Shown one piece after another: positions 3,793 through 5,543 of a stretch of DNA of 64,000 nucleotides (its first letter is position 1; each line of letters starts with the position of its first letter). The DNA lies in the NCBI GenBank assembly GCA_045807625.1, contig JBJMHA010000041.1, positions 201,228 to 265,227 on the forward strand, read 5' to 3'. Under the pieces are notes generated by a model. It ran no database searches, was not told where the DNA came from, and worked only from the letters and a program-made list of their open reading frames with translations. The position numbers and the translations under genes are program-made. Source of the stretch: Thermoanaerobaculia bacterium (GTDB lineage: Bacteria; Acidobacteriota; Thermoanaerobaculia; Multivoradales; UBA5704).

Positions 3793-3930
3793 ATGAAAGA
3801 AAAGATCCGGGTTCAGCCGCTCCCGTTATCTCGCGAGACGATTCGCCAGCTCGACAACGACAGGCTGGTCCACATCAGTGGCGGTTGCGATACGACGTCG
3901 TACACCACCGACCGTGTCATGGCGCAGTGA
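3793..3930 (+). CDS. putative RiPP precursor peptide 1 (GG leader, Thr/Asp-rich core)
   Basis: 45-aa ORF MKEKIRVQPLPLSRETIRQLDNDRLVHISGG|CDTTSYTTDRVMAQ. GAGGA lies 5 nt before the ATG. Below the 60-aa cutoff of the ORF track. Sits 490 bp upstream of the ATP-grasp gene. Confidence 0.5.
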   Translation: MKEKIRVQPLPLSRETIRQLDNDRLVHISGGCDTTSYTTDRVMAQ

Positions 3931-4159
3931 CCAGCCGCTCGGGCTGGGGTGGTGTCACCCGATTCGCGGCGCTACCGCGGGCCTGAGCCTGACGAAGAGG
4001 GTGGCACCTGTTTTCTTGTACTTGTTTTCTTCCGTACCTGGTCCCCGGTACCGGTCCGGGTTCTAAGCCGGCGGCCCGTCTCGCCTGGTACTGCTCGCGG
4101 CACCTCTTCTGGTGGGAGCGTGGTCCTTGAGGCCCCTTCCGGACGAGAAAGGAGTGAGA

Positions 4160-4306
4160 ATGAAGAAGAACGACACTCACACCGGACGAATCCTTGGCCG
4201 CAGGCTGGCCCGGGAGCTGACTCGCAAGGAGCTCGAGAAGGCGACCGGCAGCGTCCAGTGCTGGACCCTGACCGATCCTCCGGACGGCCCGTACCGCGAC
4301 CACTGA
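4160..4306 (+). CDS. putative RiPP precursor peptide 2
   Basis: 48-aa ORF MKKNDTHTGRILGRRLARELTRKELEKATGS|VQCWTLTDPPDGPYRDH. AGGAG lies 8 nt before the ATG. Leader motif LARELTRK parallels LSRETIRQ of peptide 1. Core has T-x-T-D-P-P-D. Confidence 0.5.
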   Translation: MKKNDTHTGRILGRRLARELTRKELEKATGSVQCWTLTDPPDGPYRDH

Positions 4307-4418
4307 CGCACCGCGGTTCGATCCGGTTCCACCCATCTCAAGACCCGGCCCGACCGGCCGGGCCTTTCTCCAACCCCCTTTATGCGTCTTCCGCTCTTCG
4401 AGCCCTGGAGGATGTTGC

Positions 4419-5543
4419 ATGACGCGAGTGTTGATCCCGACCTATCCCGAGGACCTTCACGTCGAGGAAGTGGCCCTGGCGCTGGAGGACCGGGGGCACG
4501 AGGCGGTTCTGTGGTGTGGCACCGACTTTCCCACGCTCCAGACAGGATCGATCGACGTCCGTGGCGGGGAGATGGGCTGGGAGATCTCGGGGCCGGGCCT
4601 GGAGGGAGGGCGTCCGCCGTTCGACGTGGTGTGGATGCGCCGTCCGACGCCGCCGGTTCTCCCCCCGGATCTTCACCCCGGCGACGCGCCCGTGGCGCGG
4701 CGGGAGTGCCGGGACTTTCTCGACGGGCTCTACCATCTGGCCGCGCCGGAGGCCTTCTGGGTGAACCCTCTTGCGACCCGCGCCCGCTCCGAGCTGAAGG
4801 CGGTGCAGCTCCGGGAGGCGGTGCGCGCGGGCCTGGCCGTGCCGCCCACGCTGATGAGCAACGATCCCGCCCGCATCCGGCGGTTCGTGGAGGAGCTCCA
4901 GGGCCGGGCGGTGTACAAGCCATTCTACCCCGCGCAGTGGGAGAGCGAAGACCGGGTGGCGGTCCTCCTGACCAGCGAGGTGAGCGTGGACGATCTGCCC
5001 GAGGACGAGATCCTGCGGCTCACCCCCGGCATCTTCCAGGCCAGGATCGACAAGGCCCACGAGCTGCGGGTGACCGTGATGGGCGACTGCTTCGTGACAG
5101 CCCGGCTGCTCTCGCAGGAGCTGGAAACGACGCGCCTGGACTGGCGGGCCGCGGGGCCTCGCCTCCGGGTGGAGCCGGACCGGTTGCCGCGGGACGTGGA
5201 GGAGGCCTGCCGGCGGCTGATGGGAAACTTGGGGCTCCTCTTCGGCTGCTTCGACTTCATCGTGACGCCGGAGGGGGAGCACGTCTTCCTGGAGGTCAAT
5301 CCCGCCGGCCAGTTTCTGTGGGTCGAGGAGGCCAACCCGGAGCTGCGGCTCCTGGCGCCCTTCGTGGATTTCCTGCTCTCGCGCGATCCCGCCTTCCGCT
5401 GGCAACCGGAAGCGGACACCATCCGCCATGCGGACTACCGCCGGCGGGCCCTGGACCGCATCGCGGCGCTCGGCCCGGTGCACGTGCCGGTGGCGGACGT
5501 GTACATCAGCAGCGATCTGCCCGCGGAGGCCTCTAAGAGATAG
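4419..5543 (+). CDS. ATP-grasp ribosomal peptide maturase (MdnC/MvdD-like)
   Basis: 374 aa. N-terminus MTRVLIPTYPEDLHVEEVALALEDRGHEAVLWCGTDFPT matches, from memory, the microviridin ATP-grasp ligase N-terminus (VLIVT...FPT). ATP-grasp fold features follow. Read-through in both antisense frames is a GC artefact. Confidence 0.75.
   Translation: MTRVLIPTYPEDLHVEEVALALEDRGHEAVLWCGTDFPTLQTGSIDVRGGEMGWEISGPGLEGGRPPFDVVWMRRPTPPVLPPDLHPGDAPVARRECRDFLDGLYHLAAPEAFWVNPLATRARSELKAVQLREAVRAGLAVPPTLMSNDPARIRRFVEELQGRAVYKPFYPAQWESEDRVAVLLTSEVSVDDLPEDEILRLTPGIFQARIDKAHELRVTVMGDCFVTARLLSQELETTRLDWRAAGPRLRVEPDRLPRDVEEACRRLMGNLGLLFGCFDFIVTPEGEHVFLEVNPAGQFLWVEEANPELRLLAPFVDFLLSRDPAFRWQPEADTIRHADYRRRALDRIAALGPVHVPVADVYISSDLPAEASKR

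Follow-up and report, generated by a model that had tools for sequence, protein, structure and literature searches.

We describe here a peptide-modification locus in a 64,000-nucleotide (nt) stretch of acidobacterial DNA (contig JBJMHA010000041.1; the whole stretch is called the window below), in which the gene for an ATP-grasp peptide ligase follows a short open reading frame (ORF), ORF2, that encodes its precursor peptide. The window has a guanine-plus-cytosine (GC) content of ~68%, and metagenome-assembled genomes of Thermoanaerobaculia (phylum Acidobacteriota) come closest to it. The initial annotation, made from the sequence alone, had proposed that two precursor ORFs, ORF1 and ORF2, stand upstream of an MvdD/MdnC-like ATP-grasp gene and that the locus is a graspetide-type locus for a RiPP (a peptide made on the ribosome and modified after translation), of a group other than the canonical microviridins. 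This core claim holds. All three ORFs are found on the plus strand with the translations given there, each behind a ribosome-binding site (RBS), i.e., a Shine-Dalgarno-like purine-rich stretch 5-8 nt before the start (GAGGAAA for ORF1, AAAGGAG for ORF2 and GGAGG for the ligase). Only ORF2, however, is kept beside the ligase, so that the proposed pair of precursors falls away. ORF2 and the ligase gene form a self-contained, conserved two-gene cassette of 1.5 kb in soil Acidobacteria (Table 1), most likely for a small cyclic peptide with ester bridges akin to the microviridin protease inhibitors, and we put the probability that this cassette is a graspetide system installing ester cross-links in the ORF2 core at roughly 0.8.

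Table 1. Features of the cassette and of ORF1 (window coordinates)
Feature	Coordinates	Strand	Remarks
Conserved 5' region, presumed promoter and 5' untranslated region	4078..4159	+	ends in RBS AAAGGAG, 7 nt before the ORF2 ATG
ORF2, graspetide precursor, 48 aa	4160..4306	+	leader residues 1-31 MKKNDTHTGRILGRRLARELTRKELEKATGS; core residues 32-48 VQCWTLTDPPDGPYRDH
GC-rich stem-loop CCCGGCC-CGACC-GGCCGGG, then pyrimidine-rich stretch	4344..4362	+	ORF2-ligase spacer
ATP-grasp peptide ligase (graspetide synthetase), 374 aa	4419..5543	+	NCBIfam, Pfam, PDB sequence, AlphaFold2/Foldseek
Short hairpin CCTCG-TTGG-CGAGG, right edge of the conserved block	5544..5557	+	directly after the ligase stop
ORF1, 45 aa, separate double-glycine-leader peptide gene (outside the cassette)	3793..3930	+	leader MKEKIRVQPLPLSRETIRQLDNDRLVHISGG; core CDTTSYTTDRVMAQ

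The ligase belongs among the RiPP ATP-grasp macrocyclases, and its nucleotide- and metal-binding motifs are conserved. In the profile hidden Markov model (HMM) search that had been suggested as a check, TIGR04187 was its best NCBIfam family (E 9.5e-62), with MvdC (1.5e-51) and MvdD (1.7e-49) behind it, and Pfam gave a weak match to PF21068, the MvdD pre-ATP-grasp domain. Six sequences of solved structures matched the protein at E <= 0.001 and all of them are graspetide ligases, namely MdnB, AMdnB, MdnC, CdnC, PruB and PsnB; identity to MdnB (E 2e-42) and MdnC (E 2e-39) is ~30%. The motifs FQARIDKAHELRV, DWR, FGCFDFI and VFLEVNPAGQF can be aligned to MdnB, and the ATP-grasp motifs common to the ligase and its solved relatives are FQA-I-K--ELRV, DWR, FG-FDFI and VFLEVNP-G. 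The AlphaFold2 model, built with 26 homologues, had a mean predicted local distance difference test score (pLDDT) of 86.7, and its best 32 Foldseek matches in the PDB were the same six graspetide ligases, with CdnC at the top. The MvdD-type pre-ATP-grasp domain is present, and a C-terminal extension of ~50 residues is absent from MdnB and MdnC. The codon signature, with a GC fraction of 0.90 at third (GC3) and 0.46 at second (GC2) codon positions, is that of a real gene in this genome. A single ATP-grasp is found in the cassette and in all related loci.

ORF2 is the precursor of this ligase. Twenty-one genome loci encoding relatives of the ligase (numbered with the prefix L) were compared, and a homologue of ORF2 lies directly upstream of the ligase gene in 17 of them and downstream in L018; two loci are cut off at the 5' end, and the peptide of L016, missed by a scan for ATG starts only, was recovered by tblastn. 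The 17 include L013, in which the homologue (3705-4004) is frameshifted inside the core and is either a pseudogene or an assembly error. In a more distant set with ligases 57-60% identical, L022 has the peptide upstream, and L023 and L024 have it downstream. A profile built on the ORF2 family, with a noise ceiling of 8.9 bits (the maximum over 2,700 shuffled peptides and 662 ORF segments of the window), retrieved 430 clusters at E <= 1 from a 90%-identity protein database and 263 representatives at E <= 0.001 from a 50%-identity library. Pfam and NCBIfam gave no family for ORF2 at useful E values, and the closest loci differ by 3-8 substitutions in ORF2, too few for an informative ratio of non-synonymous to synonymous substitution (dN/dS).

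Across this family the leader is nearly invariant, R-I-L-G-R-[RK]-L-A-R-E-L-[TS]-R-E-E-L-x-x-A-x-G-[GS], and it is a double-glycine leader of the type RILGRRLARELTREEL..G[GS]. Double-glycine leaders have hydrophobic residues at -12, -7 and -4, an acidic residue at -8 and G-G/A/S at -2/-1, and the signature in ORF2 consists of L20 (-12), E24 (-8), L25 (-7), A28 (-4), G30 (-2) and S31 (-1); its relatives end in GG, GS or GA. Leader and core are separated by a spacer of 0 to ~16 residues in the family, and the length differences at this junction among close loci are multiples of three bases. Unrelated cores follow this leader type directly upstream of two ATP-grasp genes whose products are 45-46% identical to the window ligase. 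The leader thus marks a large ligase clade with hypervariable cores, of which the pattern T-x-[TS]-[YD]-P-[PA]-D-x4-D is one branch. This branch counts 28 representatives at E <= 1e-10 and is mainly found in Thermoanaerobaculia. As a separate observation, the peptides P0242-P0383 carry the leader RIL[GA]RxLAREL[TS]xEEL..GG with very diverse cores, Cys-rich, Ser-rich or Asp-rich.

The limits of the cassette are clear from ten close genomes (L001-L009 and L016), all different GTDB species representatives. DNA identity to the window is 89-96% within a shared block whose left end falls at 4051-4078 and whose right end falls at 5533-5565, and in the flanks nothing else within reach is common to the window and these genomes at the DNA or protein level, except repeats shared with L006. 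The cassette thus lies at a different place in every genome, and its high identity, the low synonymous divergence (pS) of the ligase gene (only 0.09-0.15) and the unshared flanks together suggest relocation or horizontal transfer; no mobility gene lies within the 1.5 kb. On the left, homology sets in abruptly at GTCTCGCC in the ten genomes and reaches ~15 nt further in five of them, taking in the palindrome AGACGGC-G-GCCGTCT. A promoter consensus scan gave no sigma-70-type site, and the promoter role of the conserved 5' region is inferred. The stem-loop in the ORF2-ligase spacer is kept in all ten close loci with only G-U wobble changes and is part of the minimum-free-energy fold; an attenuating or transcript-stabilising role is possible, but an RNA element is not claimed because there is almost no covariation and the regional z-score is only -0.95. 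A terminator scan found 4 sites as compared to 2.4 expected, which is not above chance, and none of them in this spacer. The hairpin at the right edge is common to the window, L002, L006, L007 and L008, is terminator-like on the minus strand only, and is followed by complete divergence. A scan with Rfam and for tRNAs gave nothing near the locus.

The core of the ORF2 family was numbered from its invariant Thr as position 0 and scored in 125 members (123 for +11). Thr at 0, Pro at +4 and Asp at +6 are present in 125/125. Position -2 is Thr in 107 members and Cys in 18, +1 is Leu, Met, Thr or Phe, and +2 is Thr or Ser in 111 and Arg, Val, Ile or Leu in the other 14. Tyr (90) and Asp (30) are the main residues at +3, +5 is Pro (76), Ala (48) or Ser (1), positions +7 to +9 are mostly G-P-Y, and 116 of 123 members have Asp at +11. 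In the most frequent core +6 and +11 are the only acidic positions, and one relative carries T-L-L-Y-P-S-D. The richness of the ORF2 core in Thr and Asp, which the initial annotation had pointed out, is present. Its statement that the cores do not carry the microviridin motif is literally correct, but T-x-[TS]-[YD]-P-[PA]-D across the 125 members reads as a clear and recognisable derivative of the microviridin core TxKYPSD.

Every member has a hydroxyl on at least two of positions -2, 0 and +2, and -2 and +2 never both lack one: Cys at -2 is paired with Thr at +2 in 18/18 cases, and the members whose +2 residue bears no hydroxyl have Thr at -2 (14/14). Since Thr is obligatory at -2 wherever +2 has no hydroxyl, position -2 is suggested to act as a nucleophile in at least some members. 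This pattern fits two ester links, which need two hydroxyls and two carboxylates, and lactams are not expected because no Lys is conserved in the core. In ORF2 itself the predicted nucleophiles are T36, T38 and possibly C34, and the predicted carboxylates are D42, D47 and possibly D39. The subclade of the window, with the core (C/T)-W-T-L-T-D-P-P-D-G-P-Y-R-D, has candidate nucleophiles at -2, 0 and +2 and Asp at +3, +6 and +11, and the window is among the 18 clusters with Cys at -2. Three rings in this subclade would be a long shot; the Cys variants would then bear a natural Cys-Asp thioester (thiolactone), and one ligase, from a 1.5-kb cassette apparently moving between genomes, would produce a tricyclic cage similar to microviridin. 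A thioester from graspetide ligases is reported so far only as a non-native product (Carter et al., PMC13097080).

The mechanism proposed for the cassette follows the analogy with MdnC, CdnC and PsnB. The ligase would bind the Arg-rich helical leader segment RILGRRLAREL of the ORF2 product and phosphorylate the Asp side chains of the core with ATP, and Thr hydroxyls would attack the acyl phosphates to give side-chain-to-side-chain esters. The invariant T36...D42 pair (T-L-T-D-P-P-D) would be the counterpart of the microviridin Thr4-Asp10 ring. A second ester would most likely join T38 to D47, with the residue at -2 as the substitute in relatives that have no hydroxyl at the T38 position. These links would give a peptide of ~15 residues that is bicyclic and possibly interlocked, although we hold this two-ring topology only tentatively. 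The leader is presumably cut after G30-S31 by a C39-peptidase ATP-binding cassette (ABC) exporter encoded elsewhere in the genome. The mature peptide might be a substrate-mimicking serine-protease inhibitor that fills the S1 pocket with the residue separating its two Thr (within the family this is Leu, Met, Thr or Phe), in which case Leu or Met would occupy P1; we consider this role as tentative as the two rings, somewhat short of an even chance.

The initial annotation took both ORF1 and ORF2 as substrates of the ligase, and such a two-precursor locus is in our view very improbable, even though ORF1 shares its strand with ORF2, which it precedes by 230 nt, has a leader ending in GG as had been noted and a core with many Thr, Ser and Asp residues, and some graspetide clusters are multi-precursor, e.g., the representative of group 27 with six. 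Among the 21 ATP-grasp loci a homologue of ORF1 is present in L003 only (80% identity), in a DNA-homology block of its own that ends 1.4 kb before the L003 cassette; no homologue lies within 4 kb in 19 of the 20 related loci, L002 included, although its ligase is 98% identical. The small ORFs expected beside ATP-grasp genes of related genomes were therefore found for ORF2 but, for ORF1, in that one locus alone. Homologues of ORF1 on six metagenome contigs keep the leader MKEKIRVQPL-LSRETIRQLD-DKLVH--GG with variable cores (CDTTS..., FTE[ST]ITTIFS...C...), and their flanks of up to 6 kb contain no ATP-grasp, ORF2 or recognisable RiPP enzyme; in the neighbourhoods of L028 and L029 there are no modifying enzymes, but an ELWxxDGT-repeat protein, a peptidase and an oxidoreductase instead. 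Against the ORF2-family profile ORF1 scored 4.2 bits (E = 9), i.e., at the level of shuffled peptides and inside the control range, and it lacks the invariant leader residues R-I-L-x-R-x-x-A. The segment L-[SA]-R-E-[TL]-[IT]-R-[QK], which had been taken as shared by the two leaders, is literally present in both, but its register differs, 18 residues before G-G in ORF1 and 14 before G-S in ORF2. Between ORF1 and the cassette there is, in addition, a dispersed-repeat copy. ORF1 is probably a real gene because pS of its leader exceeds the non-synonymous divergence (pN) in 9/10 comparisons, but it is unrelated to the graspetide cassette and belongs to a different double-glycine-leader family. Its only match in Pfam and NCBIfam was a weak one below the cutoff, to NF038153 (E 0.06), a leader model for class I lanthipeptides. 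In L029 the ELWxxDGT-repeat protein has 1144 residues and is encoded directly after the ORF1 homologue (6392-9826, plus strand), with no RiPP enzyme close by.

It is scarcely credible that the ligase instead serves primary metabolism, as enzymes of the RimK, glutathione-synthetase or LysX type do, and that ORF2 is an ORF by chance. The label of its homologues at the Joint Genome Institute (JGI), 'glutathione synthase/RimK-type ligase-like ATP-grasp enzyme', and maturase-model scores under the curated cutoffs would speak for such an enzyme, but the RimK and glutathione synthase models of NCBIfam reached only E 4e-4 and 0.25 as compared to 1e-62 to 1e-50 for the peptide maturases, and RimK and LysX structures appeared only from rank 33 of the fold matches, at 14-16% identity. 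The grouping with RimK or glutathione synthetases that the initial annotation had named as grounds for giving up the idea is thus not what was found, and the ORF2 protein sequence is kept in hundreds of clusters, always beside the ligase. A cassette that is real but makes a single T36-D42 ester is also unlikely; its product would be monocyclic, and the second Thr, G-P-Y and D47 would serve target binding. Among the candidate linking residues the Thr at 0 and the Asp at +6 alone are strictly invariant, some short relatives stop two residues past the latter (TWTLRYPPDRD), and Makarova et al. (PMC8939145) noted graspetide clusters permitting one ester only. On the other hand, Asp at +11 is nearly as constant (116/123), the second hydroxyl among -2/+2 is never absent, the short relatives retain a second Asp (+8) and Thr at -2, and characterised graspetide ligases typically install several linkages (PMC13097080). 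Several points weigh against the graspetide system itself as set out above. The ligase scores under all curated cutoffs, with 209 bits against 350 for TIGR04187 and 169 against 475 and 175 against 425 for TIGR04184 and TIGR04185, for which reason public records label its homologues 'hypothetical' or 'RimK-type'. The predicted cleavage site of ORF2 has G-S and not G-G, and no C39 peptidase, exporter or other RiPP gene is among the ~30 proteins scanned across the 64-kb window; according to Makarova et al. (PMC8939145), roughly half of the graspetide precursors carry a GG motif, and the peptidase gene often lies outside the cluster. The covariation of -2 and +2 tracks clade structure, so the counts of 18/18 and 14/14 are not independent events. 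The cross-links are all predictions, ring topology is not derivable from sequence, and the protease-inhibitor role is drawn purely from analogy.

Other features of the surroundings were recorded. A Cys-rich double-glycine-leader peptide (MKKSMKKLRLSRETVLELDLAKTNGG + LIPEDTYYCESNSCAGVLCTYSCPHTCGGVCW) is encoded at 7094-6921 on the minus strand, without a Pfam or NCBIfam family at useful E values, and a second at about 7435-7346 on the same strand; similar Cys-rich peptides occur on the minus strand of L006 (2920), L012 (6524) and L013 (6662). Double-glycine peptides lie within ~2 kb of the cassette in five loci, ORF1 and its L003 homologue counted, and where they stand past the ligase, the opposite strand encodes them. 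The window has three such peptides, none more than 3.4 kb from the cassette, and the other 55 kb contain no further one; they may form a peptide island sharing an exporter. The gene-poor region 4000-12183 contains the motif GGTGGCACCTGT 10 times with one mismatch allowed, all on the plus strand (0.23 expected). This motif ends a dispersed repeat of ~380 nt with copies at 7717-8092, 11267-11530 and 11533-11915, which carries a remnant of a 40-aa ORF (...AYxLFVAAYRxAAEKLRxGxRDxxFPxGSFPPxxPFVGG); single copies are near the cassette in L003, L006 and L019. The idea that ORF1 lies inside this repeat was rejected, only a 20-nt upstream match and the downstream terminal repeat motif being common. Tandem arrays are present at 5625-5753 (43 nt x 3), 5879-6100 (21/42-nt units) and 9043-9320 (41-nt units with inverted copies), the last of them 93% conserved in L006 (3095-3536). 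The minus strand also encodes a HigB-like toxin (64 aa) paired with a HigA-type helix-turn-helix antitoxin (108 aa) at 8672-8106, and a 492-aa protein with a thiaminase-I domain and a C-terminal MVL mannan-binding lectin domain at 11075-9597. A radical S-adenosylmethionine (SAM) protein at 42889-44169 was considered as a RiPP partner and set aside as unrelated, being 37 kb distant. The Acido-Lenti-1 small RNA (Rfam RF01687, 46.6 bits) at 46043-46088 on the plus strand is consistent with acidobacterial origin.

If the prediction is true, the cassette would be a compact system of one precursor and one enzyme, whose bicyclic peptide would resemble microviridins but differ in ring pattern, and whose leader-recognition code would be another one; this code, RIL[GA]RxLAREL, is common to at least 263 sequence-diverse precursor clusters. 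It would also suggest that a microviridin-like, possibly protease-inhibiting core exists in abundant, uncultured soil Acidobacteria, and the enzyme and leader may serve as a minimal pair for peptide macrocyclisation work. The view of RiPP biosynthesis would be unchanged, as graspetides are an established class with over 20,000 computational predictions.

Among the known systems the microviridins, with the motif TxKxPSD, a Thr4-Asp10 ester, a Lys6-Glu13 amide and residue 5 in the S1 pocket of the protease (PMC7823629), offer the nearest comparison. Among solved structures MdnB and MdnC stand nearest to the ligase in sequence, and in fold MdnC is second only to CdnC. The core T-L-T-[YD]-P-[PA]-D of the window family can be aligned with T-x-K-Y-P-S-D, and the residue at the position of the microviridin S1-pocket residue is hydrophobic. 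The differences are also considerable. The full microviridin motif TxKxPSDx(D/E)(D/E) is not present, since T, [Y], P and D alone are left of it in the window family; in place of Lys stands Thr, Ser or Arg, so that there is no Lys and no lactam; Ser9 gives way to Pro or Ala, one relative having Ser; and the acidic residues stand at +6 and +11 instead of +6, +8 and +9. The microviridin leader motif PFFARFL is absent from all 125 members, which have RILGRRLAREL and a double-glycine end instead, and MdnA scored 4.5 bits against the family profile. Microviridins require two ligases, MdnC for the esters and MdnB for the amide, as compared to one in the window cassette, and their acetyltransferase and transporter are absent from the window locus. 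Their hosts are Cyanobacteria or Bacteroidota, whereas that of the window is an acidobacteriote of the Thermoanaerobaculia.

The leader and the enzyme clade have closer counterparts in the computational surveys. Carter et al. (PMC13097080) sorted 21,584 predicted graspetides into 43 groups in 2026, and group 27, a new, uncharacterised group known by prediction only, comprises 122 clusters, mostly of a synthetase with precursors, with a representative from Candidatus Angelobacter. Its peptides have the same leader type as ORF2, RVLARLQARELT...GG, and scored 12-21 bits against the ORF2-family profile, above all controls (maximum 8.9); the ORF2 family in turn conforms to the group's R[VI]LAR-xx-AR-x-L...GG type, the cores of both open with T-x-T, and the neighbour genes of group 27 are rich in Acidobacteria types. 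The ligase of the representative (364 aa) is 34% identical to the window ligase (166 bits); the direct comparison is with this representative only, and its approximate EFI score of 45 stands against a grouping threshold of 70. The representative's cores, T-x-T-x-C-T...DGD-x-GEC, contain two Cys and no YPPD and share only the T-x-T start with the window family, and its locus holds six precursors and an adjacent C39-peptidase ABC transporter. Precursor cluster 208 of Makarova et al. (2022, PMC8939145), from Xanthomonas citri (GRVLARVLSRDEVGQVAGG...), scored 20-24 bits against the ORF2-family profiles. Together with L034 (887-2284) and L035 (1979-3347), in which a precursor lies directly upstream of an MvdD-like ATP-grasp of 371-379 aa, 45-46% identical to the window ligase, it shares the leader R[IV]L[AG]R-x-[LV]-[AS]-R-[ED]-[LV]...GG with ORF2. 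The cores of these relatives are unlike that of ORF2, being Cys-rich (CCCADDCC), Ser-rich (...GDDGGADD) or NSWKDQSKCTPKTDP, and some of the loci have HlyD-type and ABC export genes, a C39-peptidase ABC transporter being probable in L034. The strings RILGR, YPPD and DPPD do not occur in the precursor sequences of the available 2022 supplements (PMC8939145), and the core T-x-[TS]-[YD]-P-[PA]-D-x4-D was not found in the literature searched, in which the sequence tables of the surveys were covered in part. The leader type and the enzyme clade are already catalogued, as cluster 208 and group 27. The ORF2 family is thus a new core variant within a catalogued, uncharacterised enzyme-and-leader clade, and it is closer to microviridin than the initial annotation held.

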